A stretch of DNA of 64,000 nucleotides from contig NZ_JBEKFG010000005.1 in assembly GCF_050013435.1 (NCBI RefSeq), positions 12,609-76,608 of the forward strand, given 5' to 3'. Source of the stretch: Candidatus Binatus sp. Its GTDB lineage: Bacteria > Desulfobacterota > Binatia > Binatales > Binataceae. The number at the start of each line of letters is the position of its first letter. The first letter of the stretch is position 1. Below are positions 2,881 to 42,359 of the stretch, in pieces. The notes beneath the pieces were generated by a model. It searched no databases. It saw only the letters and a list, made by a program, of their open reading frames with translations, and was not told where the DNA came from. A program made the translations under genes and the position numbers.

Positions 2881-2952
2881 ATAATCCCCTATGGGAATGG
2901 TTAGGGGTTAGGCTAGCTCAGATTGGGTTCCAGAACGAATCACACTGGTGAA
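2881..2952 (-). repeat. direct-repeat copy 1: orphan duplicate of the carboxylesterase 3-prime end plus downstream sequence
   Basis: Aligns to 3670..3756 at about 90% outside the heptamer tract. On the minus strand it reads IHQCDSFWNPI-stop, versus FHQCDSFWNLF-stop at the real gene end. Confidence 0.85.
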
Positions 2953-3012
2953 TGTCTCAGCTATCTGAGAACGTCGCCAGCGAACCCGTGCAGTTAGATT
3001 TGCCACTTTCAA

Positions 3013-3588
3013 CTATGGGAGATCCTCATCGACAAGTCGGCGATCCAAAGAGACGTGGATAATCTGGCTCACGACAGCGTCAGCCGGAATGTCCTTCACT
3101 GTGTCATTGATTCTGGTTCTAGGAATTACCGCACAGAAATCAAAGTCCCATCCCGTAACCGGCGCTGACGCATCACCAAATCGGCATTTTGCAGTCCACC
3201 CGTAACGCGATATTTCGGCATCGGGTTGAGGAAACCAACGCCTATCATTCGCCTTACCGGCCAGAATCAGCACTTGAACTAGGGCTGCCGATGGGTAGGC
3301 GAATCCCTTGACGATTTTGAATAGAGGCACCTTGCCGCCAGCGGGCGACTCAATGACGATCAACGGCTGGAACTCAGCGCTTCGCTGCCTTACTCCAAAC
3401 AGCACGGCCACAATCACAACGGCCAGAACTCCGAGCAAAAAGCCGAGCGCAGTATTTTGGAACGGGATGGCCTGAATTAGCCTGATCGCAATCACTGCGA
3501 CACCTGCGCGGATCCAATCGAACAGGCTCCACTTGAAGTACCATCTGTTAAACTCCGGCTCGTTAAGCCACGCACCGATTTTCGACAT
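3013..3588 (-). CDS. hypothetical membrane protein (cassette gene)
   Basis: 191 aa with two N-terminal TM helices and a soluble C-terminal domain. No motif I recognise. It is the only gene between the two repeat copies. Confidence 0.55.
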   Translation of the reverse strand: MSKIGAWLNEPEFNRWYFKWSLFDWIRAGVAVIAIRLIQAIPFQNTALGFLLGVLAVVIVAVLFGVRQRSAEFQPLIVIESPAGGKVPLFKIVKGFAYPSAALVQVLILAGKANDRRWFPQPDAEISRYGWTAKCRFGDASAPVTGWDFDFCAVIPRTRINDTVKDIPADAVVSQIIHVSLDRRLVDEDLP

Positions 3589-3669
3589 GCCGACCCCCTG
3601 ACGGTGAGATTACCTCTCCCGCCGCCAAGGAATAGCCTAGCGGTAGAGGCGCTATCCGTCCACTTCCGG

Positions 3670-3756
3670 ATAATCCACTATGGGAAGGGGTTAGGGGTTA
3701 GGGGTTAGGGGTTAGGCTGGCTCAGAAAAGGTTCCAGAACGAATCACACTGGTGAA
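3670..3756 (-). repeat. direct-repeat copy 2: authentic carboxylesterase 3-prime end plus downstream sequence
   Basis: Same sequence as 2881..2952 but with two extra GGGGTTA units. Confidence 0.85.
3687..3716 (+). repeat. (GGGGTTA)x4 tandem heptamer, canonical G-quadruplex motif
   Basis: Sequence is ggggtta ggggtta ggggtta ggggtta gg, i.e. four G4 runs with TTA loops. The paralogous copy at about 2899..2914 has only about two units. Confidence 0.9.
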
Positions 3757-5236
3757 AGGCGTTAAAACTGGACTCGACCATCGGCGCTGGCGGGACCAAC
3801 GATTGGAACTCATCGGCTGACTTGCTGTACTTCGGCCACGTCGGCTCGTTAGCCGAGTTTGGGTTGCCAGTCTTCGCGAACTGCGTCCAGTAGCTGATCA
3901 TCGCGTCGGAGAGTGCCTGCTGGTCGGTCGTAAATGGGAAAACGTCCCCTGTTACAAGCATTAGGTATTGAATTTCCGCGCCGTGAAAGGCGCCCAGCGG
4001 AAAGCTTACCCCTGTTACGGTGCCCGGAGGCGCGTTCTCGTCATTGAACTCGTAGGCATAGGTCTTCACGAATTTCGACAATAGCAGATCCGCATTGCGC
4101 GCTGGACAGCTGAAGACTCCGTCGGTACCCGAGGCAGCCAATGCCAGATCGCCGCTAGGGTAACTGGCATAGGGATAGTATTCCAATACGTACGGTTCCA
4201 ATTCCGTTGTCCACAGCGCAGTGACTGCATCCGCGTATTCACCGAAGGTCAGGATAGGATTCCCCGCTAAGTCGTACTCACCAGCTACGAAGTACCTATA
4301 TTCATCATGGCTGGAGCATCCGACACTTATCGCGACGGAACTGCCCGACGGCGCGAAGCCATCGGTTGTCTCTGCAGTCTCTATTGGCACGATAGCAGGA
4401 AAGTAGTCCTGGAAGTCTGTATACGATCCGCTCTCGGCGATCGCGCCGCGGAACAGATGTTTCGCGGTCGGAGACGCAAGATTGCAATATACGCTCTGCC
4501 CTCCGGCGGACTCACCGAACATCGTCGCTTTCTTCGGATCGCCGCCAAAGGCCTTGATGTTCTCCTGAACCCACTTGAGCGCCAATTGCTGATCCATCAA
4601 CCCATAGTTGCCACGTTCATGGCCTTCGGAATCGAGCGCGGCCTGGGCAAGGAATCCCAGCACTCCCAGCCGGTAGTTGATCGTGACAACGATCACTCCT
4701 CCCTGGTTCACGAGTGGAGTAGGGTCGTAAAGGTCGCCGCCGCCGGCCGTAAGTCCGCCGCCATGAATCCAAACCATCACCGGCAGGCCGCTTGGCTTCT
4801 TGCTTGCGGCGGTCGTCTCGTCGCCGGCTTGTTCTACCGCGTTGCCAGGTTCGGAACCGGACGGCGTGTAAACATTCAGGTACAGACAATCCTCGCTGCC
4901 AGTCGGTCCGGGCTGCGTGCACTCATTGCCGAATTGAGTCGCCTCGAAAGTTCCTCCCGCAAACTCCCCGAAAGCCTCTGGCGGCAGCCAGCGCAGAGGC
5001 CCCACGGGAGGTGTGGCGTACGGGATGCCGAGAAATTCGTCGACGCCATTAACCGTTGTGCCGAGCACCACTCCGCTTTGAGCGATAGCAAACGGCTCTG
5101 GGTATGACGCCGTCTTGGCCGATGCGGTCACTACCGGGCCCAGCGTAAATGCGCAGAAAGCGGCCAATCCGAGGGCAAGCTTGGAAATAACGCCACAGCC
5201 CTCGAGCCGCTGGTTCGCCGTCTCGCTGTTCGTCAT
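3722..5236 (-). CDS. type-B carboxylesterase/lipase, secreted
   Basis: Motifs GIPYATPPVGPLRW, EDCLYLNVY and the nucleophile elbow FGESAGG. Signal peptide after MTNSETANQ. The tracked ORF 3722..6112 is an artefactual upstream extension running antisense to the GST gene. Confidence 0.9.
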   Translation of the reverse strand: MTNSETANQRLEGCGVISKLALGLAAFCAFTLGPVVTASAKTASYPEPFAIAQSGVVLGTTVNGVDEFLGIPYATPPVGPLRWLPPEAFGEFAGGTFEATQFGNECTQPGPTGSEDCLYLNVYTPSGSEPGNAVEQAGDETTAASKKPSGLPVMVWIHGGGLTAGGGDLYDPTPLVNQGGVIVVTINYRLGVLGFLAQAALDSEGHERGNYGLMDQQLALKWVQENIKAFGGDPKKATMFGESAGGQSVYCNLASPTAKHLFRGAIAESGSYTDFQDYFPAIVPIETAETTDGFAPSGSSVAISVGCSSHDEYRYFVAGEYDLAGNPILTFGEYADAVTALWTTELEPYVLEYYPYASYPSGDLALAASGTDGVFSCPARNADLLLSKFVKTYAYEFNDENAPPGTVTGVSFPLGAFHGAEIQYLMLVTGDVFPFTTDQQALSDAMISYWTQFAKTGNPNSANEPTWPKYSKSADEFQSLVPPAPMVESSFNAFHQCDSFWNLF

Positions 5237-9590: not shown

Positions 9591-10022
9591 TCAGGCGTCC
9601 GCAATCAGCCTCAAGCCCAGCATCGCCGCGGCGCCGCTGAGCGCATCGTCGAAGCAGGCGAAGCTGACCGACGATCGAATCGCCGCCTGGAGCAAATCGG
9701 CCGTTGCAAGGTGCAACGCGTCGTAGGCGCGCAAGCGATATTGTTCCGCCAGATCCCCCGCACGGCGGATCGTCGTGGCGTCGACCGGTAACCGATTGAG
9801 CCGGGTCCAGTCGCGCTCGAATTCGCGCTTGTGCCGCCGCAAGGCAGCGTCGTCGATGTCAGCCAGGCGATGCTTTCGCGCCAACGCCGACCTGGTCTCG
9901 ACATATGCGACGAGGCTTGTCGCAACCAGATCCGCCCGAGCCACCGCCTCCTTCACCTCGGTACTGCCCAGCTCTCGCGCGTAGAGCTTCACGAGAGCGG
10001 AGGTGTCCAGGTAGAGGATCAC
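9591..10022 (-). CDS. vapC: PIN-domain type II toxin
   Basis: 143 aa with the N-terminal MILYLDTSALVKL acidic PIN signature. Overlaps the upstream antitoxin gene by 4 nt. Confidence 0.85.
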   Translation of the reverse strand: MILYLDTSALVKLYARELGSTEVKEAVARADLVATSLVAYVETRSALARKHRLADIDDAALRRHKREFERDWTRLNRLPVDATTIRRAGDLAEQYRLRAYDALHLATADLLQAAIRSSVSFACFDDALSGAAAMLGLRLIADA

Positions 10023-10309
10023 CTCCGCTCCTGGAGCACCAACTCAGCAACCGCTTTCTGGCCTCGGCCGATAATGATTGGACGCGACGACCCACGAGGC
10101 TTGCCATCCCTGGCCGCGAGCATGCCCGGGATCCGCTTCAGACGCCGCTGGAGTTCCGAGGCGGCCGGCTCCGGGCTGGCCGCCGTAGCCAGCGCCAGCA
10201 ACCGCGCAATGGGCCGGCCACGCGAGGTAATTATCACATCCTCGCCGTTGTCGGCCTTCTGCAGGTACATAGATAGCCGCGCCTTGAACTCGCGCACTGA
10301 TGCTTTCAT
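10019..10309 (-). CDS. Phd/YefM-type antitoxin
   Basis: 96 aa. MKASVREFKARLSMYLQKADNGEDVIITSRGRPIARL is typical of Phd/YefM. Translationally coupled to the PIN toxin. Confidence 0.8.
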   Translation of the reverse strand: MKASVREFKARLSMYLQKADNGEDVIITSRGRPIARLLALATAASPEPAASELQRRLKRIPGMLAARDGKPRGSSRPIIIGRGQKAVAELVLQERR

Positions 10310-10311
10310 GA

Positions 10312-10335
10312 GACCACATTATAGACAATGTGGTC
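10312..10335 (-). promoter_or_regulatory. candidate vapBC promoter/operator
   Basis: 9-bp inverted repeat gaccacatt-N6-aatgtggtc. A perfect minus-strand TATAAT (10318..10323) overlaps the left arm and spacer of this repeat and lies only 8 nt from the ATG. Confidence 0.55.
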
Positions 10336-11210: not shown

Positions 11211-13712
11211 ATGCCAGCCGCGGCCGCCGACCCGCTCGGCGGCCTGAGTCACGACGAGGCGGCGCGGCGCCTGAAGCGGTACGGGCCTAACCGCCTGGTG
11301 CGCGCATCGCGCGGCGCCGCAATCCTGGCGTTTCTCAGAACCGCCGCGGACCCGATGGCATTAATGCTGGCCGCGGCCGGCGCGGTTTACTACGCGCTGG
11401 GCGAGCGGACCGACGCGTACGTCCTGTTCGCAGCGATCGTTCCGGTGCTTGCCGTCGATGTAATCCTCGAGGCGCGATCGCGCACCGCTCTCAAGAAGCT
11501 TGCGGGCGTCGTCGCGCCGCGGGCGCGAGTGGTTCGCAGCGGTGTCCAGACCGAGGCTGCGACCGCGGACCTTGTCCCCGGCGATCTGCTGGCGCTGAAA
11601 GAGGGCGACATCGTTCACGCCGATGCGGTTGTGCGTTCGAGTTCCAATCTCGCGCTCGACGAATCGCAGCTCACCGGCGAAGCGGAACCCGTTTCGAAGC
11701 GGCCGTGCGAAACACCCGGAGCCATGCCGGATGCCGCGGAGGACAGCCGCGTGTATGCGGGCTCGCGCGTGCTCGAGGGCCAGGGGTTTGCCGAGGTAAC
11801 GGCGACCGGGGAGCGCACCCGCTATGGCGACCTGGCGCGCCTGGTCGCGGAGGTCGGCCCGCGTCCTACCCCGCTTGAGCGCAAGACCGGGCGCATGGTG
11901 CGCTGGATGGTCGGCGTGGCGATTACCGTTTCGGCGCTGCTGTTTGTCGTGCGCATGCTCGGCGGCGCGCCGGCGGGCAAGGCGTTTCTGTATGCGGTCA
12001 GCCTCGCGATGTCCGCCGTTGGCGAAGAGTTCCTGCTGGTGCTGACGATGTTCCTGAGTATCGGAGCGTATCGCCTTAGCCAGCACGGAGTCCTGGTGCG
12101 CCGCCTGGCCAGCGTCGAGACGCTCGGCTCAACCACCGTCATCTGCCTCGACAAGACCGGCACTCTGACGGCCGGCGAGTTCGTGCTCGAGGAGCATCTG
12201 CCGCTGGGGCCGGAGATGCCGGAGGACGCGTTGCTCGAGGCGGCCGCGCTCGCCTGCGAGCCTCAAGCCGCCGACACGATGGAGAGAAAGATTCTCGCCC
12301 ATTGCACGGAGCACGGGATCAACGTCGATGCGCTTCACTCGCGATGGCATCTGGAGCACGACTACGCGTTCGACCCGGTCGGCAAACACATGTCGCACGT
12401 CTGGAGCAGCGGCGACGGCGCCGGGGGCGCACAGCGAATCGTGGCGAAGGGCGCGCTGGAAGGGATAATCGAGCATTGCGATCTGTCGCAGGCGGATTTC
12501 GCTCGCGCCGAGAGCGCCAATGCCGAGATGGCGGGGCGCGGAATGCGCGTGCTTGCCGTGGCCGGCCGCGATGCGCGGCCGGGCGGATTCAACGGCGTGC
12601 GCGGGTCGGACGAGCGCGGGCTTCGTCTGTTCGGGCTGCTCGGGTTTCGCGATCCGCTGAGAGCCGCGGTTCCCGACGCGGTCGCGCAATGCCAGCGCGC
12701 CGGGGTGGAACTCAAGCTGATTACCGGCGACCACGCGCTCACCGCGCACGCAATCGCCGACGCCGCCGGAATCGCGCACAGCGACGACGGCATCGTCACC
12801 GGCGCGCAACTCGACAGCGTTGACCAGCCGGCCTTCGAAGGGCTGGTTCGCCGCTGCAGCATCTTCGCGCGCATCCGCCCCGAACAAAAATATGCGATCG
12901 TCGAGGCGCTGAGGCGCGCGGGCGAAGTCGTCGCGATGACCGGCGACGGGATAAACGACGCGCCGGCGCTGCGCCGGGCGGACATTGGCGTGGCGATGGG
13001 CCGGCGCGGAACGGAGGTCGCACGCGCGGCTGCGGACATCGTGCTGCTCGAGGACGATTTCTCCGCGATGGTCGCAACGATTCGCGAAGGCCGGATTTTG
13101 CTCGACAACATTCAGCGCGCCTTCCTTTACCTGGTCGGCTTCAAGGTGATGCTGGTATCGCTCACGCTGTTGGCGCCGGTCTTCGGCCTGCCGCTGCTGC
13201 TATTGCCGGTGAATTTGGTGTGGCTCGAGATGATCGTACACCCGGTCTCCGCGCTCGCTTTCGAGGGCGAGCCCGCCGTCGATGACGTGATGCGGCGGCC
13301 GCCGCGTCCTCCCTCAGCGCCGATCGTCGAGCGACCCGCCGCTTACCGTGCGGCTTTATCCGGGGCGCTGCTGACGGTGATGGCGCTTGCGCTCTTCGCG
13401 CTTCGACTCCGCGACGGCGAGAACTACGCCCGCAGCGTCGCGATGGTCGTCGCCGTGGTGGGGAGCCTGTTTCTGGTCTGGGCGGAGTACGCAGGGACCC
13501 GTCGATGGTGGCGGGTTCGCGCGCCGGAGCAGCGGCGATTCTGGCTTGTGATCTTTGCCGTAGCCGCCAGTCTGCCGGCATTCATGCTGACGCCGCCGCT
13601 GGCTAAGCTGCTGATGATCCGCCCGATTGCTCCCGCCGATTGGGGGATCGCAATATTGGCGGCGGCGATCGCCGTCGGTTGGCGCGCGTTCGGCACCCGC
13701 AGCGTCAGATAG
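11211..13712 (+). CDS. cation-transporting P-type ATPase (P2/P3-like)
   Basis: Phosphorylation motif CLDKTGTLT, hinge MTGDGINDAPAL and a TGE-type actuator motif (LTGEAEP). About 10 TM helices. ATG at 11211 is preceded by aaagggg; a TTG at 11193 is also possible. Confidence 0.9.
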   Translation: MPAAAADPLGGLSHDEAARRLKRYGPNRLVRASRGAAILAFLRTAADPMALMLAAAGAVYYALGERTDAYVLFAAIVPVLAVDVILEARSRTALKKLAGVVAPRARVVRSGVQTEAATADLVPGDLLALKEGDIVHADAVVRSSSNLALDESQLTGEAEPVSKRPCETPGAMPDAAEDSRVYAGSRVLEGQGFAEVTATGERTRYGDLARLVAEVGPRPTPLERKTGRMVRWMVGVAITVSALLFVVRMLGGAPAGKAFLYAVSLAMSAVGEEFLLVLTMFLSIGAYRLSQHGVLVRRLASVETLGSTTVICLDKTGTLTAGEFVLEEHLPLGPEMPEDALLEAAALACEPQAADTMERKILAHCTEHGINVDALHSRWHLEHDYAFDPVGKHMSHVWSSGDGAGGAQRIVAKGALEGIIEHCDLSQADFARAESANAEMAGRGMRVLAVAGRDARPGGFNGVRGSDERGLRLFGLLGFRDPLRAAVPDAVAQCQRAGVELKLITGDHALTAHAIADAAGIAHSDDGIVTGAQLDSVDQPAFEGLVRRCSIFARIRPEQKYAIVEALRRAGEVVAMTGDGINDAPALRRADIGVAMGRRGTEVARAAADIVLLEDDFSAMVATIREGRILLDNIQRAFLYLVGFKVMLVSLTLLAPVFGLPLLLLPVNLVWLEMIVHPVSALAFEGEPAVDDVMRRPPRPPSAPIVERPAAYRAALSGALLTVMALALFALRLRDGENYARSVAMVVAVVGSLFLVWAEYAGTRRWWRVRAPEQRRFWLVIFAVAASLPAFMLTPPLAKLLMIRPIAPADWGIAILAAAIAVGWRAFGTRSVR
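13643..13708 (+). repeat. 66-bp direct repeat, copy 1 (last 22 codons of the ATPase)
   Basis: 64/66 identical to 16505..16570. Confidence 0.9.
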
Positions 13713-13902
13713 GTTTTGTCGATCACGTCTGTGACCGGGCATTGTCGCCATGCGCTAACCGAGACATCGCCGCATCATCCTTTCTAGCCGGTCGCATTCG
13801 ATCCTTTGCATTCAGGCGGAGTACAATTGCCCAATGCCATGCTCACTTGGGCCGCAACTGGCTGGCGATGCGCAACTCTGCCGAACCTGAAGAGCTTCTC
13901 GA

Positions 13903-15216
13903 ATGACGCGACGACCGCCGCGCGCCACAGTGTCCGAAGCGGACGATAGGCCAACTATCGTTACTCGCGACTCGGACCCGGACAGGCGGCCCTCCGCGCG
14001 GAGCTTGCGCGGACTCGACTGGCTCAACTTCCTGCTCGCCGACGTGCAAAGCGGTGTGGGGCCGTTCCTCGCGATCTACCTTGCCGGCTATGGCTGGAAC
14101 GAGCAGCGCGTGGGCCTTGCACTCACGATTGGAGGAATCGCCGGTATCGCATCGCAAACACCGGCCGGCGCTTTGGTGGACCGGCTCAAGTCCAAAAGAG
14201 CGCTGATTGCGGCGGGAGTGGCCGCCTTGGCTATCGGCGCTCTCTTCATTGCGTTCTTTCCGTCGTTCTGGCCGGTGGTGACAGCGCAAGTGCTTATCGG
14301 CGCAATGTCCAGTTTCTTCATGCCTGCCATCGCCGCAATCTCTCTTGGGATTGTGGGACATAGACTCTTCAATCTCCGCCAAGGACGAAACCAGGCATTC
14401 AATTCGGCCGGCAACGTGGTCGCCGCCCTAATGATGGGGCTGATCGGTTATTTCATTTCGAACCGCGGCGTCTTTTTCTTTGTCGCGGTTCTCGCAGTCC
14501 CGACGATCCTGTCGCTGTTGCTCATCCGCCCCGACGAGATCGACTACGAACTGGCCAGGGGAGCCAGGGACGGCGAGGATGATCGAAATCCGGCAAGTGT
14601 CCTGGAACTGATCGAGGATCACCCGCTGATGATCTTCCTGTGCTGCGCGGTCATGTTTCATTTCGCCAACGCAGCGATGCTTCCGCTGCTCGGCGAGATG
14701 CTGGCGAAAGGCAAGGGTCGCACTTCGATGATGTTCATGTCCGCCTGTGTCGTGACAACGCAGTTCACGATCACACTGCTCGCGGCACGGGCAGGCCGGA
14801 GTGCGGGCTCATGGGGCAGAAAGCCCCTGCTGCTCGTAGGATTCGGAGTGCTGCCGATCCGCGGCGTCCTTTACACCCTCACCCACAACCTCTACCTGCT
14901 GGTCGGCATCCAGGTGCTCGACGGCATCGGCGCCGGCATTTTCGGCGTCGTTTCCGTATTGGTGATCGCCGACCTGACGCGTGGCACCGGGCGGTTTAAT
15001 CTTACGCTCGGCGCGATCGCAACGGCCGTGGGAATCGGCGCGGCTCTAAGTCAAACGATCGCCGGATCTATTGTTCACCACTTCAGTGACCGAGCCGGGT
15101 TTCTGTTCCTGGCCTCCGTGGCGGCGGCGGCCTTTGCGATCCTGTGGCTCTTCATGCCCGAAACCCTTGACTGGAAAGCCGGCGCTCACGCGCCGACGTC
15201 GGTGGCGAAGCGTTGA
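13903..15216 (+). CDS. MFS transporter
   Basis: 437 aa, about 12 hydrophobic helices with a central loop. Charged N-terminal extension. Confidence 0.8.
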   Translation: MTRRPPRATVSEADDRPTIVTRDSDPDRRPSARSLRGLDWLNFLLADVQSGVGPFLAIYLAGYGWNEQRVGLALTIGGIAGIASQTPAGALVDRLKSKRALIAAGVAALAIGALFIAFFPSFWPVVTAQVLIGAMSSFFMPAIAAISLGIVGHRLFNLRQGRNQAFNSAGNVVAALMMGLIGYFISNRGVFFFVAVLAVPTILSLLLIRPDEIDYELARGARDGEDDRNPASVLELIEDHPLMIFLCCAVMFHFANAAMLPLLGEMLAKGKGRTSMMFMSACVVTTQFTITLLAARAGRSAGSWGRKPLLLVGFGVLPIRGVLYTLTHNLYLLVGIQVLDGIGAGIFGVVSVLVIADLTRGTGRFNLTLGAIATAVGIGAALSQTIAGSIVHHFSDRAGFLFLASVAAAAFAILWLFMPETLDWKAGAHAPTSVAKR

Positions 15217-16481
15217 CGATTGCCAATGACACTATCTGGGCAATCGCCGCGCTGAGCACCCTTGGTGTGATCGTCCGCCCTTGGAACCTGCCCGAGGCGA
15301 CCTGGGCTGTGACCGGCGCGGTCATGCTGATCGTGTTCGGTCTGCTGCCATGGAGCGACGCGCTGAAAGCGGTCGCCAAGGGGACCGATGTGTACCTGTT
15401 TCTGAGCGGCATGATGCTGCTGGCGGAGTTGGCGCGCAAAGAGGGTTTGTTTGACTTTCTGGCCGGGCGAGCCGCTCGCTTGGCGGGCGGCTCCGCGGCG
15501 AAGCTGTTCGCGCTGGTTTATGGCGTCGGCACAGTAGTTACAGTTTTTATGTCGAACGACGCTACTGCGGTCGTCCTCACGCCAGCCGTGTTCGCCGCGA
15601 CCAAGGCCGCCAAGGTGAAGGACCCGCTGCCCTACCTGTTGATCTGCGCGTTTATAGCAAACGCGGCAAGCTTCGTCCTGCCGATCTCAAATCCAGCCAA
15701 CCTGATCATCTTCCGCGACCACATGCCGCCGCTGCTGCAATGGCTCGGGCGATTCGCGTTGCCATCGATCCTGTCGATCGCGGTTACCTATGCTGTCCTG
15801 CGGTTCACGCAGAGCGATTCGCTGCGGCAGGAGGTAATGGCCGCTGAGGTCGATGTACCTGGCCTGTCCAGCGGCGGCCGCATGACCGCTTGTGGCATCG
15901 TGGGCACGGGAATCGTGCTGCTGCTTGTCTCCGGCTTCGGCGTTGACCTTGGACTGCCGACATTTGTGGCCGCAGTCGCGACTGCCGCCGTAGTGCTTTT
16001 TCTAAAGCGCCAGTCACCGTGGAGTGTGATGAAGGACGCTTCCTGGGAAATCTTGCCGCTGGTGGCCGGTCTGTTCGTGCTGGTAGAGGCGCTTGATCGC
16101 AGCGGCGTGCTCAAAGCGCTCATTCATATTCTGCAGATAGGAGCAGATCGCTCTGCGATGGTGACGACTTGGATAGCGGGCGTGACTCTGGCCCTGATTT
16201 GCAACCTGGTCAACAACCTGCCGGCCGGTCTGCTGGCAGGCTCGGTTGTGTCTGCTGCGCATGTACCGCGGCAGGTCGCCAGCGCAGTGCTCATCGGGGT
16301 GGACCTCGGACCGAATTTGTCAGTTACCGGATCGCTGGCAACCATCCTGTGGCTGTCCGCGCTGCGGCGGGAAAATCAGAATGTGAGCGCCTGGAGTTTT
16401 CTGAAACTCGGTGCGTTGGTGATGCCGCCGGCTTTGATTCTCGCGATTGCGGGACTGCTGGTCACCGGCTCCGTTCGCTAG
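15213..16481 (+). CDS. ArsB/NhaD-superfamily permease
   Basis: 422 aa polytopic protein resembling arsenical-pump/citrate-transporter family permeases. TTG start overlaps the MFS stop codon. Confidence 0.7.
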   Translation: MTIANDTIWAIAALSTLGVIVRPWNLPEATWAVTGAVMLIVFGLLPWSDALKAVAKGTDVYLFLSGMMLLAELARKEGLFDFLAGRAARLAGGSAAKLFALVYGVGTVVTVFMSNDATAVVLTPAVFAATKAAKVKDPLPYLLICAFIANAASFVLPISNPANLIIFRDHMPPLLQWLGRFALPSILSIAVTYAVLRFTQSDSLRQEVMAAEVDVPGLSSGGRMTACGIVGTGIVLLLVSGFGVDLGLPTFVAAVATAAVVLFLKRQSPWSVMKDASWEILPLVAGLFVLVEALDRSGVLKALIHILQIGADRSAMVTTWIAGVTLALICNLVNNLPAGLLAGSVVSAAHVPRQVASAVLIGVDLGPNLSVTGSLATILWLSALRRENQNVSAWSFLKLGALVMPPALILAIAGLLVTGSVR

Positions 16482-16504
16482 TCCGTCCAGCGCCGAAACC
16501 TTTC

Positions 16505-16570
16505 GGGGATCGCAATATTGGCGGCGGCGATCGCCGTCGGTTGGCGCGCGTTCGGCACGCGCGGCGTCAG
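16505..16570 (+). repeat. 66-bp direct repeat, copy 2 (orphan ATPase 3-prime end)
   Basis: Same frame reads GIAILAAAIAVGWRAFGTRGVS with no stop. Overlaps the stop codon of the convergent acyl-CoA dehydrogenase. Confidence 0.9.
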
Positions 16571-21010: not shown

Positions 21011-21021
21011 GCGCGACCTCG

Positions 21022-24707: not shown

Positions 24708-24708
24708 A

Positions 24709-27046: not shown

Positions 27047-27052
27047 GTCGAG

Positions 27053-27081
27053 AATATATCTCAGGATGAGATAGATGTCAA
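27053..27081 (-). promoter_or_regulatory. sigma-70 promoter candidate for higBA (near-leaderless)
   Basis: Minus strand reads TTGACA-17 nt-TATATT, and the -10 box ends 6 nt before the higB ATG. Confidence 0.6.
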
Positions 27082-27320
27082 CTCAAATTGCGATGAATTT
27101 TATTACTTCTTCGCCTTGCGCTTTTTGGCTCTCACCGCGGCGTGGCGGATATTCATGGACAGTGAGTTAGCAGGCGGTCGCGGGACCGGCAAACGGCGGT
27201 GGCGCAGAGGCGGCCGGGCGCGAGCGGAAATGCGGCCGCATCGCGAGATCGTTCCGACGAGTGTTGAGCGCAGCGGGAAAGAACTCGTGCGCCTGACCCG
27301 GGATTTTCGGGTACTCATTT

Positions 27321-27366
27321 CCTCAACATGATTCAGGATCGCCGAATGGCGGCGCGATAACGCTGC
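27321..27366 (+). repeat. 46-bp direct repeat, copy 2 (orphan cytochrome c 3-prime end)
   Basis: Retains the frame and stop (LNMIQDRRMAAR-stop versus LNMIQDRRTAMR-stop). Confidence 0.85.
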
Positions 27367-27378
27367 GCGCGGGCGGGC

Positions 27379-35865: not shown

Positions 35866-36642
35866 GTGTATACGCCCGATCTGGGCGGTGCGATTTTGAA
35901 TGAGAAAAGAGCTTCCCGCGAAACAGACCTCGACAGACTAAGCCGGCTCAAGGTTTTGTCGTGGCTTTCTCCGTCTGAGCTCAAACTTTTGGCAAGTGCG
36001 CTGTCGCTTTCCGACTACAAACGACACGCGTTAATTCTGCGCGACGTTGCGCAGGCGCAAAGTGCCCACATTCTGTTGGCAGGAATTGCGCGCATCACCT
36101 GCCGCAACGCGCGCGACGAGCGTGTCACGGTGGCGATGCTGGCGCCGGGACCGATTCCGGAATTCCCAGCGCTGCCGCTCAGTCAGTCTGGTTTTCAATG
36201 CGAGGCTTACAACGATTGCCGCGTTGGAACTGTGAGCTGGGCTGACTTCGGCGGCATTACCCCAAATGCTCCCGAGTCCGCCTTCAAGCAATTTCACAGC
36301 AACGATTTGAAGCAGTGGTACCGCCTCCTGCTGCGCAGCTCGAGTTTCCTGAACCTTGGCCTGCACGAACGAATCGCCGTTGCGCTGTTGGAGCTGTGCT
36401 CGGACTTTGGAGTCGAGGAATCGCGCGGCACGCTGCTGCGCGTATCTTTCAGCCATAAGGACATCGCCAACCTGGTCGGCGCCTCGCGGCCCAGAGTGAC
36501 CGAGCATCTGGCGCGATTGGAGCGCGAAAAGTTCGTCATTCGCCAGGGACGACAGATGGTCGTGCAGGTCGCCAAGCTTCTCGATTCCATGAATGCTCAG
36601 GCCGGGCCGCATGTTTTGCGGGTCGATCCGCGACGTGAATAA
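35866..36642 (+). CDS. Crp/Fnr-family transcriptional regulator
   Basis: Barrel region (AHILLAGIARITCRN) and HTH (SHKDIANLVGASRPRVTEHLARL). Start codon uncertain (GTG at 35866 or a downstream TTG). A weaker -24/-12-like site lies at 35816..35831. Confidence 0.75.
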   Translation: MYTPDLGGAILNEKRASRETDLDRLSRLKVLSWLSPSELKLLASALSLSDYKRHALILRDVAQAQSAHILLAGIARITCRNARDERVTVAMLAPGPIPEFPALPLSQSGFQCEAYNDCRVGTVSWADFGGITPNAPESAFKQFHSNDLKQWYRLLLRSSSFLNLGLHERIAVALLELCSDFGVEESRGTLLRVSFSHKDIANLVGASRPRVTEHLARLEREKFVIRQGRQMVVQVAKLLDSMNAQAGPHVLRVDPRRE

Positions 36643-36671: not shown

Positions 36672-36868
36672 AGGATGGACCTAGCAAAATCGCGAGCGGA
36701 TAGGTTTTGCGGGGTTCTTGCGATTTGCGCCGTCGGAGGCGTTCTCCGGGTCCGCGCACGATCTGGAATCGCGCGCACACGCGCGCTTTTCGCGCGATTC
36801 TCCGACACGTCCGAAAATCCAGAGATTGAATGGTGGAGCAGAGTGGATTTGAACTGGCGACCCCCACT
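36672..36868 (-). repeat. decayed copy of tRNA 3-prime part plus about 160-bp tRNA-downstream element
   Basis: 36834..36868 matches the acceptor/T-arm end of tRNA-Ala, but its T-stem no longer pairs. 36672..36833 aligns at roughly 75-80% to 42120..42286, including an identical 27-mer gaatcgcgcgcacacgcgcgcttttcg. Confidence 0.75.
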
Positions 36869-37153
36869 TCGCCTTCTCATCGCAAAATTGTCCGCGGAGT
36901 TGGCGACTAATTTGCAAAAGATTAAAACAGCGCTGCTGGAGAGAGCATTATCGCCACGCGTTCGCCTTGAATGTTTCTCTCCCAAGGTCGCAGCCAGGGC
37001 GTGATTTTTGGCCATCTTCCTCAGCATCTTTTCTATACGCGGCTATGATCTCGTCTTACGTAGTGGCCACCCGCCGTTCCTCCGCCATTGGATTGCTTAG
37101 CCTCTGGCGCCGCGCTATTTCTGTGGACAACAGACTGATTATGAACTGACGGT

Positions 37154-38833
37154 TTGATTGCAGAGTCGAGAGTAAGCTGCGCTTGCGACGACCGCAGGCT
37201 CCAACCGCGCAGGCGGGGAAATCCAATTAAACGCCAACAAAAAATAGGACGGATTGGCGTTATCGTATCCTTGAGTTTGGCCGCTTGCGCTTTGCTCATA
37301 GTGTCGACGAGCGCGCCACGTGCACAACTGGCGTCTTCCCCTTGGCCTGTGTTTCGGCACGATTCCGCGCACACCGGCCAAAGCCAGGTCGATACCAGCA
37401 CTAACAACGGCGTCCAGACATGGTTGTTTGTCTACCCGGGAGGCACTTTTTTTGCGCCGCTATCGTCGCCCACACTTGGCGCAGATGGAACGATCTATTC
37501 AACTCCCGGAGACGACAACCTCTACGCATTTAATCCGGACGGGACGCTGAAGTGGACTTTTGTAACCCCCTGGCCAATGGACTCTTCACCCGTGGTCGGA
37601 GCCGATGGAACCATCTACGCTCCTTCACAGGGCGATATTCGAGACGGTTATCTGTACGCCGTTAACCCCGATGGGACGCTGAAGTGGACTTTCCAAACCA
37701 GCTTTTCATGCGAGTCTTCTCCTGCCATCGGTTCCGATGGGACAATCTACATTTACTGCGATGACGGCAAGCTGTATGCGATCAACCCCGATGGCACGAC
37801 GAAGTGGGTGCTGGCGGAAGGATTTGATGGAACCAATGAGATGTCCTCTCCGGCGATCGGTGCCGACGGAACGATTTACTTCGGTTCCGCTAACTACAAC
37901 CTCTACGCGGTAAACCCAGACGGCACGTTGAAATGGGCGTTTCAGACGCCTGGCGACGTGGAGTCCTCTCCGGCAGTAGGGCCAGATGGTACCATCTATG
38001 TCGGTTCCGAATACACCAATGGCTATCCACATAGTATCGCCTACCTGTTCGCCATCAATCCGGACGGTTCCTTGAAGTGGCGGTTCCAGTCACCGAATTA
38101 CTGGGTGCTGTCCTCGCCGGCAATTGGGACCGATGGCACAATCTATTTTGGAGACGGACTCAGCTTGTGGGCGTTACACCCCGACGGCAGTCTCCGGTGG
38201 CAAGTCATTCCCGACGATACTGGGGGCTTCAACCAAGCGGTAATCTCCTCGCCCGCGATCGGAGCCGATGGCGCTGTTTATGTCGGGACCAACGACGGAA
38301 AGATCTATGCGGTAAATCCCGATGGGTCGGTTAAGTGGAAGTTCCCCGTCGGCCTTTCGCTTGTTGAGGGAGCGCCGGCGATCGGCGCTGACGGAACGGT
38401 CTACATCAACGTGTGTCCTTTTGGCCCAAATCGTCTTTACGCAATAGGCCACGGCGTTCCGCCAACGCCCACACCAACGCCCACGCCGGTGCCGGTCAAA
38501 CTCGAGATCAGACCGAAGTCGCTAAATTTCGGCACCGTGGAGGTCGGGAAGCATAAGGGACCCAAACATGTCATCGTGCGCAATCCCAAAGGGGGCAAGA
38601 AGACGCCCGGTATTACGGTGACGATTTTAGGGCTCAGTGGAGGGGGCAGTCCGTTCAGCGTGACGAATGGCTGCAGTGTATCGGACCTGTCCCCAGGCGA
38701 TGGGTGCTCCTTCGAAGTTACGTTCGCGCCGACCGCCGCCGTATCGTCTACTGCCACCCTGATGATCATCGACAATGCGGAGCAGCAGTCGGTGGACCTG
38801 TCGGGAAAGGGGCAAGCGCCGAAGAACAGATAG
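37154..38833 (+). CDS. secreted PQQ-like/BamB-like beta-propeller repeat protein with PT linker and C-terminal Ig-like domain
   Basis: About nine repeats of DGTIY...L(Y/F)A(V/I)NPDGTLKW. PTPTPTPTP linker, then a roughly 110-aa beta-sandwich-like tail. Signal peptide present; true start may lie downstream of 37154. Confidence 0.8.
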   Translation: MIAESRVSCACDDRRLQPRRRGNPIKRQQKIGRIGVIVSLSLAACALLIVSTSAPRAQLASSPWPVFRHDSAHTGQSQVDTSTNNGVQTWLFVYPGGTFFAPLSSPTLGADGTIYSTPGDDNLYAFNPDGTLKWTFVTPWPMDSSPVVGADGTIYAPSQGDIRDGYLYAVNPDGTLKWTFQTSFSCESSPAIGSDGTIYIYCDDGKLYAINPDGTTKWVLAEGFDGTNEMSSPAIGADGTIYFGSANYNLYAVNPDGTLKWAFQTPGDVESSPAVGPDGTIYVGSEYTNGYPHSIAYLFAINPDGSLKWRFQSPNYWVLSSPAIGTDGTIYFGDGLSLWALHPDGSLRWQVIPDDTGGFNQAVISSPAIGADGAVYVGTNDGKIYAVNPDGSVKWKFPVGLSLVEGAPAIGADGTVYINVCPFGPNRLYAIGHGVPPTPTPTPTPVPVKLEIRPKSLNFGTVEVGKHKGPKHVIVRNPKGGKKTPGITVTILGLSGGGSPFSVTNGCSVSDLSPGDGCSFEVTFAPTAAVSSTATLMIIDNAEQQSVDLSGKGQAPKNR

Positions 38834-39266
38834 GCACGGATCGAGTCTCCACGATCGGGCTACTTTAGCGGGCTTCACTCTCTTGAAATTTCCGTCCGCA
38901 ATGCTGAGCGGAAGCTTGAGCAACCTGACGCTGCCGGTCACTGTGATCGCGGGACAAGGGTATCCAGGCCTCTTGAGCCAGAGGCGACGGCTACGGTCAG
39001 ATCACGTTTCCAGCCCCAAATGGCGGGCGTGGAGCATTCGGCATTGCCCTGGTTATCAAATGAGTGCTCAACTGAACTTCGGAATCTTTCTTTGGAGGGC
39101 GGAAGCCGCACAGAGATAGCTGGTCGAGGCCTCGCCAATCTAAAGCGCACGAAGGGCCGACCGTGATCCAAGGCTAAGGCCCCATCGAGAGCGATGATTG
39201 GCTCAAGTACATTTCGGTCTTATCGGCTCGCCTCAAGCACTTCGTCGCGCGCGTATCAAACGGCCC

Positions 39267-42017
39267 CTATTTCGACTTGCCCGTGATTTTCACCTTGATC
39301 GCTTTCTTATGCGTGGGATCATCGCTCGTGATCGAGATCTGATCGGTCCTCGATCCTTCCTTCATCGGCGTGTACACGATTATCACCTGGTGGTTCAAAC
39401 CCGGCCCGATCAGGATCCCGCTTCCTCCCTCAACCTCTGTGAATGGTGGGGCGTGTTTCGGTGCGGTTACCTTGGCCGTCAGTGGGCCAGTCCCGGTGTT
39501 GCCAATAGTGATAATCGCGGACGCCGTAGCCGCTGGCGACGCGTTGAGTTTGACCTTCTTCGGGTTCACCGAGATGCGCCCGCCACCAGGCGTCGCAGTC
39601 GCCGTCGGCGTTGGGGTCTCAGTTGCAGTCATTGTTGCCGACGGAGTCGCAGTTGGCGTCGCAGTTGGCGTCGGCGTGCCGCTAGTTGAGGTTGCCGTCG
39701 GCGTGCCGCTACTTGAGGCAAATGCCATCACGAGATTGGTGGCATTGACGGTCCCGATGCCGGTATCGAAGTCCCATCCGGCGTTCGCTGCAAATGCATC
39801 CTGGAACGATGAGTTCGAGGTGGACAGCACGCCGACTCCGACTTCGTAGGTAGGTAATCCGCCAGCGAAGCAGTCTGGGTCGCCTACAAAGCATGGTTGG
39901 TCGTTATCGCCTTGGGTTATGTCGTAGAAGATGCACGAACTTGAAACTTCGTTGCCCAGGCTCGACTCGCAACTGGCGTTGCCACTCGAGCCATACTCAG
40001 CGCGCGCGAGCGAATAGTAGGTGGTATTCGGGTTGCCTTGATCGCCGCCAGCCTTCTGATTGGCCAGAGCCTGGATGCCGGCCATTATCGGCGAAGCAAA
40101 CGACGTCCCGCCCGCGCAGGGCCACGTGTCGGTGTCGCCCGCGCATGAATTCAGGTCTGCAGGGTTGGAATTGCAAAACACGTAGCAGTGTCCCCACAAT
40201 CCGTCGGCGGCGAACAAGGCGACGTCGGGAAGATCGCGGACGCCGTCGCTCGGATTGCCAAAAACCGATTGGTAACCAGGCTTGGTCCATCCTGTACAAC
40301 TCCCACTTACCACGCCGGTCGTGGACGGCGCTCCGCTCGCACAGGAGCTTGGGCCACCGCCGCCGCCTACGACTTCCAGTGAAAACTCGGGTTGGGGACA
40401 AATGCCGCTCCCCAGCCCATCACAACACCCATAGGGCTCCTGGTTAGCCGTGCAGATACCGGGTCCCAACAAAGCAAGTTCGCACAAGCCGCTTGGGCCA
40501 TAGGTTGAAACCGTGCCAATAAAGCCAGACAAGAGGTCGCTCGCGCAGGAATCGTTCCACGGGATTTCCGGCAAATAGGACGTCGCCGAGCCGCCGTTGG
40601 TGCCGTTCGACGCATTCCAGTAAGTGGAGCTTGTGCTGGTTAAAAAGTCAGCGAAATCGGTGCCACCCACCGCCACGTCATTCGGGCTGGACGCAAATCC
40701 GCTGACGCTGATTCCGTACTCCCCCGCCCAGGGAGGAGGCTGCCTATCTAAGTCATTGGCATCAGCGCCGGAATCGCCCGCGGCAACGAAAATTGAGGTG
40801 CCTCCCGCAACTCCCGTCTGATACAGCGAGTCGATGGCGGCGTTGGAGGCTGCGCCGTTAACTACCTCCGATTCAGCGTAGCTGACGCTCACAACATCCG
40901 GCTTGGGGCTAAGCGCGCCGTTGAGAATGTTCTGAAGTGCGACAAAAACTCCCGAAGCCAACGTCGTCCCAAAAGGGCCGGTAGAGACGTCCGCGCACGA
41001 GCCCACGACAATGGTCGCGTTGGGCGCCGAAGCGCTGGCCCATTCCGCATCGATGATCGCCTCGACATCAACGTCTGGGACGGCGCCCGGATCGCTACAA
41101 TTGTCCGGGCCGCTGGGTGGTTGCGGCTGGAACTCGCGGAAGCTCCCGTTCGGGAAGGAGCTGCTAAGACCAAACGCATTGCGAAAGGTGTTCCAATCCT
41201 CAGCATTAAAGACGTCGCTGTCTTCGACCACCACGATCGTCTCGCCCTGTCCGGTGATGCCGCCGGAAAAGAGCGGATTCAAGTTGTAGATGGTTGCCAG
41301 GTCCGCGGGTACGACCTCTTCGCACGGAGCGCCTAACGGACCGCAAGCGCCGCCCGGTGAGAAGTCGGTTTTCGTCTTCGTATGCATCGGATGCGGCCTG
41401 AAGTCATTCAGCGAGACGATGCCGACCACTGCCGGCGCCAGCGCGGCCGGAATCCGCGGATCGCTCATGTTGGCGATATGTTGCCTACCATCCACGTCAA
41501 GGCGATGAATCGAGGTGTGGAAAGCCTTGCGCACCTCGCCCGCCGTACCCAAGAAGTCGATCACGATGCCATTGGGATAAACGAGATTGACGGTGAAGCC
41601 ATGCGATCGCAGCCAACCCGTAATCGTCGCCATATCTTCAGGCGCCAAACCGTAACGCTGTCCGATTTTCTGCGGGGTCAACCAGTGGTGATAGTTTGGT
41701 GACTTGGAGTCGCTCTGCTGTTCCATGTACTGCCGAAGGGCCTGCTCCGCTTGCGGAGAGCGTCGCAACTCCAGGAACATGTGGTCCATCCGAAAGGTGT
41801 CAGCGACCGGCCCGCGATCGTAGCGCGCATTCGCTTCTGGACGCGCATTACCCGTGAGCGTGACCAGCTTGGTGTCGCTGACCGGTTCAGTAATCAAAGC
41901 TCGGGGTTGTGATTGCGCGCCGACAACCTGCCAGTAGCCCGCCATCGCAGCGAGGAGAATCCCGCATCCCAACACCACGCGCATACGATAGGTTGAACGA
42001 ACTCTGGATGATTTCAT
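39267..42017 (-). CDS. secreted S53 (sedolisin/kumamolisin-like) peptidase with PT linker and C-terminal Ig-like domain
   Basis: Start at MKSSRVRS with a signal peptide. Pro-kumamolisin activation-domain-like N-terminus. Catalytic Ser context GGTSFASPIMAG. TPTATPTATPS linker and a tail resembling that of the 37154 gene. Confidence 0.8.
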   Translation of the reverse strand: MKSSRVRSTYRMRVVLGCGILLAAMAGYWQVVGAQSQPRALITEPVSDTKLVTLTGNARPEANARYDRGPVADTFRMDHMFLELRRSPQAEQALRQYMEQQSDSKSPNYHHWLTPQKIGQRYGLAPEDMATITGWLRSHGFTVNLVYPNGIVIDFLGTAGEVRKAFHTSIHRLDVDGRQHIANMSDPRIPAALAPAVVGIVSLNDFRPHPMHTKTKTDFSPGGACGPLGAPCEEVVPADLATIYNLNPLFSGGITGQGETIVVVEDSDVFNAEDWNTFRNAFGLSSSFPNGSFREFQPQPPSGPDNCSDPGAVPDVDVEAIIDAEWASASAPNATIVVGSCADVSTGPFGTTLASGVFVALQNILNGALSPKPDVVSVSYAESEVVNGAASNAAIDSLYQTGVAGGTSIFVAAGDSGADANDLDRQPPPWAGEYGISVSGFASSPNDVAVGGTDFADFLTSTSSTYWNASNGTNGGSATSYLPEIPWNDSCASDLLSGFIGTVSTYGPSGLCELALLGPGICTANQEPYGCCDGLGSGICPQPEFSLEVVGGGGGPSSCASGAPSTTGVVSGSCTGWTKPGYQSVFGNPSDGVRDLPDVALFAADGLWGHCYVFCNSNPADLNSCAGDTDTWPCAGGTSFASPIMAGIQALANQKAGGDQGNPNTTYYSLARAEYGSSGNASCESSLGNEVSSSCIFYDITQGDNDQPCFVGDPDCFAGGLPTYEVGVGVLSTSNSSFQDAFAANAGWDFDTGIGTVNATNLVMAFASSSGTPTATSTSGTPTPTATPTATPSATMTATETPTPTATATPGGGRISVNPKKVKLNASPAATASAIITIGNTGTGPLTAKVTAPKHAPPFTEVEGGSGILIGPGLNHQVIIVYTPMKEGSRTDQISITSDDPTHKKAIKVKITGKSK

Positions 42018-42119
42018 CTCGTTCCCCCCGGCCGCGGAGTCCCGCATCTCCACGTCCAACGTCCCCCGCGGGCGTTTAGGCTATGAAATGCATGCCCGGA
42101 ATAATAGCGAATCTAAAGC

Positions 42120-42286
42120 GAGGATCCGCGGACCCAGCCAAATCGCGCCCGGATAGGTTTTGCCCGATTCTGCCGATTTGCGCCGACCAAGGCGCTCTCT
42201 GGGTCCGCGCGTGATCGCGAATCGCGCGCACACGCGCGCTTTTCGATCGATTCTCTGGCATCTCCAGAAATCTGGAGACTGAAATG
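42120..42286 (-). repeat. tRNA-downstream element, copy adjacent to intact tRNA-Ala
   Basis: Homologous to 36672..36833. Contains hairpin tctccag-aaat-ctggaga (42261..42278) and an alternating pyrimidine-purine tract cgcgcgcacacgcgcgc. Confidence 0.75.
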
Positions 42287-42359
42287 TGGAGCAGAAGGGA
42301 TTTGAACCCTCGACCCCTACGTTGCGAACGTAGTGCTCTCCCAGCTGAGCTACTGCCCC
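42287..42359 (-). tRNA. tRNA-Ala (anticodon CGC)
   Basis: GGGGCAGTAGCTCAGCTGGGAGAGCACTACGTTCGCAACGTAGGGGTCGAGGGTTCAAATCCCTTCTGCTCCA folds as a cloverleaf. G3:U70 identity pair, anticodon loop TTCGCAA, CCA not encoded. Confidence 0.9.

Follow-up and report, generated by a model that had tools for sequence, protein, structure and literature searches.

How do ordinary genes come to lie between long direct copies of another gene's 3′ end when no recombinase gene accompanies them? This question is raised by a 64-kb stretch of DNA (hereafter, the window) from Candidatus Binatus (family Binataceae, phylum Binatota) from peat, in which a reading of the sequence alone (the sequence-only reading) had described such repeat-flanked insertions at a carboxylesterase gene (locus 1), a P-type ATPase gene (locus 2), a cytochrome c gene (locus 3), and a tRNA-Ala gene (locus 4). 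All four repeat pairs were confirmed (blastn E-values from 5e-11 to 1e-44), and at loci 1, 2, and 3, each repeat corresponds to a segment that is present only once at the empty site. We give an even chance to the interpretation that these loci are scars of recombinase-free, homology-assisted gene acquisition from related Binataceae, effected by host recombination.

The window was compared with 195 fetched loci of Binataceae relatives and metagenome contigs, designated here by L-numbers (L001, L095, and so on). The open reading frames (ORFs) of the cargo were annotated with Pfam, PHROGs, and NCBIfam, and the significance of the repeats was evaluated with blastn. Proteins of the window had exact copies on many peat-metagenome contigs from JGI and ENA, and a 698-amino-acid oxidoreductase (20845..22941) had orthologs at 86–96% identity in dozens of Binataceae metagenome-assembled genomes. 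At loci 1–4, the cassettes and their repeats matched those on independently assembled JGI and ENA contigs of this species at every base, so the repeat pairs are not assembly artefacts. There was no presence/absence polymorphism within the species among the 16–23 contigs read per locus, i.e., all the events were fixed in the sampled population. The G+C content was generally ~0.60–0.64, and dropped to 0.54–0.59 at 2–4 kb and 34–41 kb. The sequence-only reading had placed the repeats correctly, with slightly different lengths: we find 72/87 rather than 72/86 nucleotides (nt) at locus 1, 69 rather than 66 nt at locus 2, and ~195 nt at locus 4. It had also assigned the three protein-gene loci to tail-to-tail junctions, which is correct; the tRNA-Ala locus is tail-to-tail as well, and this arrangement is thus common to all four loci. 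In one respect its description has to be reversed, because the esterase, ATPase, and cytochrome c genes are not cargo; they are the targets, and it is their 3′ ends that were duplicated.

At locus 3, a toxin–antitoxin cassette lies between the cytochrome c gene and a kinase-like gene, and the features are as follows.
25701..26126, plus strand: small cytochrome c gene, the target, with the tail ..RRTAMR-stop, a non-resident allele
26087..26149, no strand: gene-proximal repeat copy
26150..27320, minus strand: cargo, with the HigB (26747..27046) and HigA (26340..26750) toxin–antitoxin pair (Pfam)
27321..27383, no strand: displaced copy with the resident allele ..RRMAAR-stop, contiguous with the stop of the kinase gene
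27379..28977, minus strand: AAA_33 kinase-like gene, the convergent neighbour

The two repeats (26087–26132 and 27321–27366) are 46 nt long and 91% identical (E = 5e-11), and can be extended to 63 nt at 81% identity (26087–26149 and 27321–27383). Within the cargo, ~175 nt of unrelated DNA lies on either side of the HigBA core. Empty sites were found in five relatives (L002, L005, L008, L012, and L023), in which the cytochrome c and kinase genes are 8–46 nt apart, and a single 46-nt segment of L002 (15241–15286) aligned to both copies of the window. The two copies carry different alleles. The displaced ..RRMAAR-stop is the form present in L002 and L003, and the members of the window's closest clade all end in ..RRMAxR-stop. 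The gene-proximal ..RRTAMR-stop has the exact nucleotides of distant relatives such as L008; this copy carries four substitutions in eight nucleotides, and they match an existing foreign allele.

Locus 1 contains two cassettes at the 3′ end of the esterase gene.
606..1625, plus strand: alpha/beta-hydrolase gene (NCBIfam and Pfam), at the far edge of the insertion zone
1630..2880, no strand: cargo 2 cassette, with overlapping ORFs at 1881..2882 (minus) and 1788..2816 (plus), absent from the empty sites
2881..2952, no strand: displaced (distal) repeat copy, consisting of the last 33 nt of the esterase allele ..FWNPI-stop, the stop, two CTAACCC units, and TTCCCATAGGGGATTAT
2953..3669, minus strand: cargo 1 cassette, encoding a predicted membrane protein of 191 amino acids (3013..3588, minus)
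3670..3756, no strand: gene-proximal repeat copy, with the working esterase 3′ end ..FWNLF-stop and four CTAACCC units
3722..5236, minus strand: carboxylesterase gene, the target (Pfam COesterase, 3.8e-95; 504 amino acids in same-species contigs)

The 72-nt copy (2881–2952), which separates cargo 1 from cargo 2, and the 87-nt copy (3670–3756) share a 54-nt core at 93% identity (blastn E = 2e-15), and their difference in length is accounted for by two additional CTAACCC heptamers. The ORFs of cargo 2 had no family match in Pfam, PHROGs, or NCBIfam, and its G+C content is low (0.54–0.57, compared with 0.60–0.64 elsewhere). In relatives, the ortholog of the hydrolase gene at 606..1625 is the convergent neighbour of the esterase gene, and at the empty sites (L097–L102, L105, and L106) the esterase stop lies 40–110 nt from it. 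Here too the copies differ in allele: the gene-proximal copy (..FWNLF-stop, GCCAGCC) is of the L095 type, and the displaced copy (..FWNPI-stop, GCTAGCC) is a different allele, akin to those of L096 and L097. The first 50–70 nt of cargo 1 are common to L095, a close relative. The edge of the repeat falls exactly at GGATTAT, the point at which cargo 1 and cargo 2 diverge, and this edge would be where a cargo-1 donor and a cargo-2 recipient lose homology. Three different cargos at this locus begin within a few nucleotides of one point. No breakpoint of a recombination tract was found in the esterase gene leading into the locus, where the identity to L095 and L096 is uniformly 96–97%.

The heptamers form a CTAACCC/GGGTTAG microsatellite (2899–2912 and 3682–3709) just 3′ of the esterase stop, with four units in the gene-proximal copy, two (one of them degenerate) in the displaced copy, and two in L095 and L096. 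Just one further site with this microsatellite was present among the 195 fetched loci.

Locus 2 lies between the ATPase gene and a gene for acyl-CoA dehydrogenase (ACAD).
11211..13712, plus strand: P-type cation ATPase gene, the target, in which the last codons are new (..GTRSVR-stop in place of ..VSPSASPARAHR-stop)
13640..13708, no strand: gene-proximal repeat copy, 69 nt
13709..16501, plus strand: cargo, with an MFS transporter (13903..15216) and an ArsB/CitMHS-like transporter (15213..16481) (Pfam)
16502..16570, no strand: displaced copy, a non-functional ATPase fragment contiguous with the native stop codon of the ACAD gene
16567..17781, minus strand: ACAD gene, the convergent neighbour, which overlaps the ATPase 3′ end by ~37 nt in relatives

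The repeats (13640–13708 and 16502–16570) are 69 nt long and 96% identical, with three mismatches (E = 1e-24). At the empty sites (L001–L004 and L057), the ATPase and ACAD genes are adjacent, their 3′ ends overlap by ~37 nt, and the cargo is absent; a single 69-nt segment of L001 (5583–5651) aligned to both copies. The ATPase tail of the relatives, ..VSPSASPARAHR-stop, sits inside the ACAD 3′ end and was exchanged for ..SVR-stop by the insertion in the window (L001, 5583–5690; window, 16502–16610).

The polarity of the change is therefore a matter of observation, because empty sites in sister species identify the cassettes of loci 1–3 as true insertions and the repeats as duplications of the 3′ end of the target gene and its flank, as the sequence-only reading had proposed. 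A non-resident allele occupies the gene-proximal copy at loci 1 and 3, and loci 2 and 4 are uninformative in this respect.

The outcomes at the same junctions in relatives were heterogeneous. At the cytochrome c/kinase junction, where the window has the HigBA insert with its 46–63-nt repeat, L003 has a 2.9-kb insert with a 58–60-nt repeat extending from the cytochrome tail to the kinase stop, and the 5.8-kb insert of L011 comes with a 109-nt repeat that copies the 3′ end of the kinase gene. At this junction, L004 has a 0.6-kb insert without a repeat, and in L001 and L054 the insertion of a channel gene left no repeat and removed 22–25 nt. At the ATPase/ACAD junction, the insert of the window is 2.8 kb with its 69-nt repeat upstream of the ACAD stop, and that of L054 is 0.4 kb with a ~26-nt repeat of the overlap region. 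Because duplications occur alongside neutral and deletion outcomes and their extents vary, these data point to imprecise recombination and argue against an enzyme with a defined site or stagger.

The cargo was also traced in other contexts. The HigBA core (26326–27148) has a counterpart at 96.5% identity in L175, where the context is unrelated; beside that counterpart lies a second toxin–antitoxin pair, whose flanking 52-nt repeat copies the 3′ end of a small ORF. The MFS–ArsB module was found elsewhere at 93.5% nucleotide identity (L091) and 88% (L094), and in L094 it is also flanked by a repeat, 57 nt long, that copies part of a neighbouring convergent gene. Among the fetched loci, no genome was found in which HigBA adjoins the cytochrome c gene or MFS–ArsB adjoins the ATPase gene, as would be expected of a donor type, and the closest copies were in other contexts.

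We then consider what could have moved this DNA. No integrase, transposase, or resolvase was detected among the main cargo ORFs of the window with Pfam, PHROGs, or NCBIfam, nor was an integrase or transposase detected in 10 cargo ORFs tested from L001, L003, L004, L011, and L054; among the products encoded by these ORFs of relatives are an Na/H exchanger with Usp, a phosphoketolase, and a pentameric ligand-gated channel. Apart from a DDE transposase gene of the insertion sequence (IS) type at 54281..55450, no recombinase gene was found in the 64 kb. No motif is common to the four repeats, the longest shared k-mers being 7–9 nt, and a shared att core was rejected on this ground. The cargo ends likewise have no shared motif and no terminal inverted repeats. 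A transposon or IS was rejected because there is no transposase in the cargo, the termini are neither shared nor inverted, and the duplications (46–196 nt) are not of fixed length. An integron cassette array or a cluster of attC sites lacking an integrase (CALIN) was rejected as well: the boundary repeats are copies of the local target, and are therefore not attC sites, they are single in the empty sites, and no integrase was found in the window. The sequence-only reading, which had seen no integrase, transposase, or attC-like site in the cargo, was thus correct on this point.

Structural targets were also sought. In five of six folded empty-site sequences, the hairpins were no better than those of shuffled sequences (z-scores of −0.5 to −1.5), and L005 was the sole outlier (z = −2.9). 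The (CG)n hairpins inside the repeats were discarded as uninformative because they are so frequent across the window (~1 per 1.4 kb). In the repeats and in a conserved arm at locus 4, only two tRNAs exceeded the Rfam threshold, and the sub-threshold matches were noise. The search for a phage or plasmid origin of the cargo yielded no exact match to the arm in IMG/VR, and the matches to plasmids were at just 65–74% identity.

Based on these results, the acquisition of DNA by homology-assisted host recombination could have proceeded as follows. The donor fragment would come from a related member of the Binataceae and would consist of foreign cargo attached to 46–200 nt of a conserved gene 3′ end and its flank. 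After entering the cell, it would recombine with the resident copy of that stretch through the general recombination machinery of the host. Either the fragment would have circularised and integrated by a single (Campbell-type) crossover, or a homologous crossover would have been combined with one illegitimate join; the illegitimate joint would have been made when the circle formed or at integration. The product would have the order gene, donor-type 3′ end, cargo, resident-type 3′ end fragment, and downstream neighbour, and the repeat would be the homology patch itself, not the target-site duplication of an enzyme. We infer the form of the intermediate (circular or linear), the route of DNA entry, and the enzymes. 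In principle, a repeat-flanked cassette could also be released by looping out and be inserted again at that site in relatives; such cycles would account for the turnover of cargo at the same junctions. Insertions would persist at tail-to-tail junctions because no promoter is broken there and because the duplication preserves 3′ ends that lie close together or overlap; the location would thus reflect selection for undamaged gene ends where convergent genes are tightly spaced.

This model is the best fit: it accounts for the duplication and its variable extents, for the donor-type allele next to the gene, for the point at which the repeat ends at locus 1, and for the lack of mobility genes and motifs. 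The Campbell-type patch of homology from a related genome that the sequence-only reading had suggested agrees best with the non-resident gene-proximal alleles at loci 1 and 3 and with the repeat edge at locus 1. Its alternative, an uncharacterised trans-acting insertion system, is disfavoured by the missing shared motif, the variable repeat extents, and the repeat-less and deletion insertions at the same junctions. Non-resident alleles in the gene-proximal copies of loci 1 and 3, variable extents, and the lack of a common motif therefore favour host recombination over a dedicated system.

The following points weigh against homology-assisted import. First, neither a circular intermediate nor a donor genome was seen, and the same-species contigs, identical in cassettes and repeats, showed no presence/absence polymorphism. 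Import also presupposes a donor that already had the cargo next to the gene in question, and one was found for locus 1 only (L095). Second, patches of 46–70 nt are near the lower limit of homology for RecA-type recombination. Third, the alleles at locus 2 do not discriminate between import and duplication in situ, the divergence upstream of the repeat is not raised in the alignment to relatives, and the 7- and 15-nt fillers at the junctions resemble end-joining. Fourth, a window-specific T is present in both copies at locus 3, and a Campbell-type donor would have to share it by chance. Finally, when 44 expanded junctions in the conserved gene block of the Binataceae were surveyed, just 3–5 (~10%) had kept boundary repeats. 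Strong repeats were present at three of them (two in the window and one in L003), the pair in L011 is offset, and one more is marginal. Given this proportion, repeat-flanked insertion is a minority mode, or else the repeats decay fast.

A survey of direct repeats of at least 40 nt spaced 0.3–8 kb apart in 1.40 Mb (the Binataceae loci plus the window) detected ~22 distinct direct-repeat pairs, five or six of them in the window, compared with 13 inverted pairs. Direct pairs thus outnumber inverted pairs, and the repeat-flanked pattern does not dominate at expanded junctions. The window is enriched in repeat pairs, possibly because its events are recent. In a previous study of small strain-variable segments, 10–18% were flanked by direct repeats, and 66–94% of those repeats were shorter than 30 bp (Touzain et al., 2010, PMC2884548). 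The fraction observed here is similar, and the repeats are longer (46–200 bp).

Among the competing explanations, the first bears mainly on locus 4, which has the following features.
35866..36642, plus strand: gene for a Crp-family regulator, the convergent neighbour
36677..36872, minus strand: copy B, the 3′ part of a pseudo-tRNA-Ala (T arm to CCA) and ~160 nt of flank
36873..37037, minus strand: conserved arm beside copy B, ~90% identical to that of L089 despite differing cargo
37038..42129, no strand: cargo, with a beta-propeller protein (37349..38833, plus) and a kumamolisin-like peptidase (39267..41984, minus)
42130..42325, minus strand: copy A, the 3′ 40 nt of the working tRNA-Ala and ~156 nt of downstream flank
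42286..42359, minus strand: tRNA-Ala (anticodon CGC)

The repeats (36677–36872 and 42130–42325) are 191–196 nt long and 80–81% identical (E = 1e-44), and they overlap the 3′ 40 nt of tRNA-Ala. A direct repeat of the 3′ part of the tRNA, with the intact tRNA at one end, is therefore present, copy B beginning at the T arm. The identity is not confined to the tRNA core; in the window as in L088 and L089, it continues through ~160–200 nt of the downstream flank. No integrase was found inside the island with Pfam, PHROGs, or NCBIfam, and its ORFs encode the beta-propeller protein, the peptidase, and small products without matches. An empty site was not found, and all three of the other species examined carry islands at this tRNA. 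In L088 and L089, different cargo is flanked by the same 200–240-nt tRNA-Ala unit, of which L088 has three copies; L090 has no such repeat and only a partial 5′ copy of tRNA-Ala (10904–11214). The repeat alleles are uninformative on donor versus resident origin. The sequence-only reading had correctly reported the repeat pair, but its assignment of this locus to the same process as the others is uncertain in view of the multi-copy arrays in three species and the conserved arm. With that arm, the locus has the appearance of an older tRNA-island array, and it is not clearly a product of the process that acted at loci 1–3.

Two side observations concern this locus. The arm (36873–37037; L089, 14405–14545) is ~165 nt long and AT-rich, contains an inverted repeat, and is set in flanks that are only ~80% identical between the two species. 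It had no Rfam or Pfam match and no exact match in IMG/VR, and could be an att arm or a small RNA. In addition, arrays of two or three units of the tRNA-Ala 3′ end plus flank occur in other species (L088, 10934–16197), with cargo such as a cupin and a sulfatase.

Under the first competing explanation, the loci are decayed or trans-mobilised site-specific integrative elements, similar to cis-mobilizable elements (CIMEs), in which attP mimicked the target 3′ end and the integrase was deleted or is encoded elsewhere. We consider this unlikely as a general account, and most plausible at the tRNA-Ala locus. Known elements that target 3′ ends include phages e14 and 21 at icd, tRNA-linked genomic islands, and CIMEs at fda in Streptococcus thermophilus. 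Like these, the loci have an intact gene or tRNA followed by cargo and a displaced 3′ fragment, which is the classic attL/attR layout, the copies are a few per cent apart, and tandem accretion leads to arrays. The claim of the sequence-only reading that att-type integration cannot produce long 3′-end duplications was overstated, since e14 and 21 duplicate ~165 bp of icd. The tRNA-Ala repeat begins at the T arm, three species have arrays of two or three units with differing cargo, and the 165-nt AT-rich arm beside the pseudo-tRNA is ~90% conserved between species; the common starting point of three cargos at locus 1 is also in line with this explanation. However, no cargo contains an integrase, the only recombinase of the window being the DDE transposase (54281..55450), and there is no fixed core or att site common to the loci. 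Furthermore, the position and length of the repeat vary at one junction, repeat-less and deletion outcomes occur at the same sites, and the tRNA repeat, which reaches ~160–200 nt past the tRNA into the flank, is unlike the product of a core-limited crossover.

The second explanation places the origin of the duplications in situ: a staggered or resected break captured stray DNA by end-joining, or a stalled fork switched template and returned upstream of its point of departure. Such events would produce target duplications of arbitrary length that are identical at birth, and the repeats do vary from 26 to 200 nt. Short fillers are present at both locus-2 junctions, and the locus-2 copies differ at 3 nt, mostly by changes unique to the non-functional copy. 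The cargo retains scraps of earlier contexts (the ~175 nt on each side of the HigBA core), and near-identical cargo copies are present in peat Binatus contigs, maybe of the same genome (HigBA, 96.5%; MFS–ArsB, 93.5%). In contrast, the non-resident gene-proximal alleles at loci 1 and 3 would require additional gene conversion, and a random staggered break would not be expected to place the repeat edge at the boundary between the two cargos of locus 1. We also know of no bacterial pathway that has been shown to generate 50–200-nt duplications around captured DNA. On balance, we regard an origin in situ as doubtful, although this explanation and the first both retain appreciable weight.

A more speculative possibility is that a host-encoded, sequence-independent pathway inserts promoter-to-terminator modules at convergent gene ends with duplications of 50–200 nt, the cassettes looping out and hopping between relatives; we think this quite improbable. 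A dedicated, uncharacterised trans-acting system that targets convergent gene ends and makes long target duplications would account for the density of such structures (four or five in 64 kb, compared with ~1 per 80 kb in 1.34 Mb of related loci), for their occurrence at tail-to-tail junctions without exception, and for MFS–ArsB being repeat-flanked in two unrelated contexts. Nevertheless, the repeats and cargo ends share no sequence or structure, the empty-site hairpins other than that of L005 (z = −2.9) are mostly at the level of shuffled controls, the outcomes are heterogeneous with repeats at ~10% of expanded junctions, and the cassettes, fixed in the population sampled, show no sign of activity, so that we hold such a system to be very improbable. 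Lastly, chance similarity, or independent tandem gene duplications followed by decay (the refuting case named by the sequence-only reading), finds no encouragement beyond the moderate identity (80%) at loci 3 and 4, is hardly tenable in view of the blastn E-values (5e-11 to 1e-44) and of cargo families that are unrelated, and not paralogous, to the flanking genes, and is effectively refuted by the alignments in which the duplicated segment is single at the empty sites.

Several known processes resemble homology-assisted import in part. Homology-facilitated illegitimate recombination in natural transformation, reportedly described by de Vries and Wackernagel in 2002, Prudhomme and colleagues in 2002, and Meier and Wackernagel in 2003, likewise combines a one-sided homologous anchor with an illegitimate joint, requires no mobile-element functions, and is imprecise, comparable to the deletion in L001 and L054. 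Its events are said to delete recipient DNA and not to duplicate it, and to our knowledge no competence is known in Binatota. In the minimal mobile elements of Neisseria, a concept attributed to Saunders and Snyder in 2002, whole-gene cassettes are said to be exchanged between conserved genes without mobility genes. The loci resemble these elements and core-gene recombination hot spots in that different cassettes occupy the same junction across strains or species; unlike the loci, the Neisseria elements move by double crossover in the genes on either side, without direct repeats being left behind. Closest among the described cases is the H47 island of Escherichia coli, an integrase-free island with long imperfect flanking repeats that is moved by host functions, and its excision and integration have been demonstrated experimentally and are RecA-independent (Azpiroz et al., 2011, PMC3191183; Azpiroz and Lavina, 2017, PMC5426353). 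Common features are a small island, ordinary cargo, long imperfect direct repeats, no recombinase, and empty sites elsewhere; in H47, the points of recombination are spread over several positions in the repeats. That island is single and has one site, whereas here several unrelated cargos occupy several sites, known from sequence alone, and the repeats are copies of the 3′ end of the local gene.

The window also contains other repeats and insertions. A VapBC toxin–antitoxin insertion lacks a flanking repeat, and together with the repeat-less and deletion insertions described above it belongs to the range of outcomes that imprecise joining would produce.
9642..10322, minus strand: VapBC insertion, with a PIN-domain gene (9591..10022, minus) and an antitoxin gene (10019..10309, minus), absent from L001 and L057

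The overlap at its junction is 2 nt, and the last ~17 codons of VapC are encoded by native DNA; the same pair is also present elsewhere, on metagenome contig L099. Just after a tRNA-Ser(gga) gene (48524–48615), two RHS-repeat ORFs (48653..50326 and 51272..51919) share a direct repeat of 209–223 nt (48984–49206 and 51582–51804; 84–87%) that brackets an FGE-sulfatase-like gene (50344..51240). This is a fifth pair with the same formal layout, which the sequence-only reading had not listed. In the tip displacement of Rhs and CdiA proteins, an incoming 3′ core piece introduces new cargo, and the previous 3′ end comes to lie downstream as an "orphan" module. The formal layout is the same as that of the loci above, but the Rhs/CdiA process is specific to polymorphic toxins and uses conserved core repeats. 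The locus at 48.6–51.9 kb looks like tip displacement with an orphan module. Inverted repeats of 74–111 nt at 87–89% identity (54072–54185 and 59096–59211) enclose the rve_3 DDE transposase gene (54281..55450, minus) together with genes for alcohol dehydrogenase, nitronate monooxygenase, and GST, and this region (54072–59211) may be a cargo-carrying or composite transposon. Finally, nested inverted and direct repeats of 34–57 nt at 85–95% identity (61568–61635 and 62547–62613) flank an alpha/beta-hydrolase gene (61478..62491).

Rather than a new mobile system, the pattern most likely represents recombination scarring of an ordinary kind that happens to be unusually legible. Current concepts remain unchanged, because integrase-free repeat-flanked islets and anchor-mediated insertions are already known. 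If the interpretation of homology-assisted import is correct, the window would provide a clean natural record of how uncultivated Binatota of soil and peat gain single genes and two-gene modules without mobile-element machinery, through short homology patches at gene ends, in scars that can still be polarised into donor and resident alleles. Direct repeats of 40–250 nt that copy a gene 3′ end would then be a marker with which recent recombination-driven gene gain could be dated and counted in metagenome-assembled genomes.

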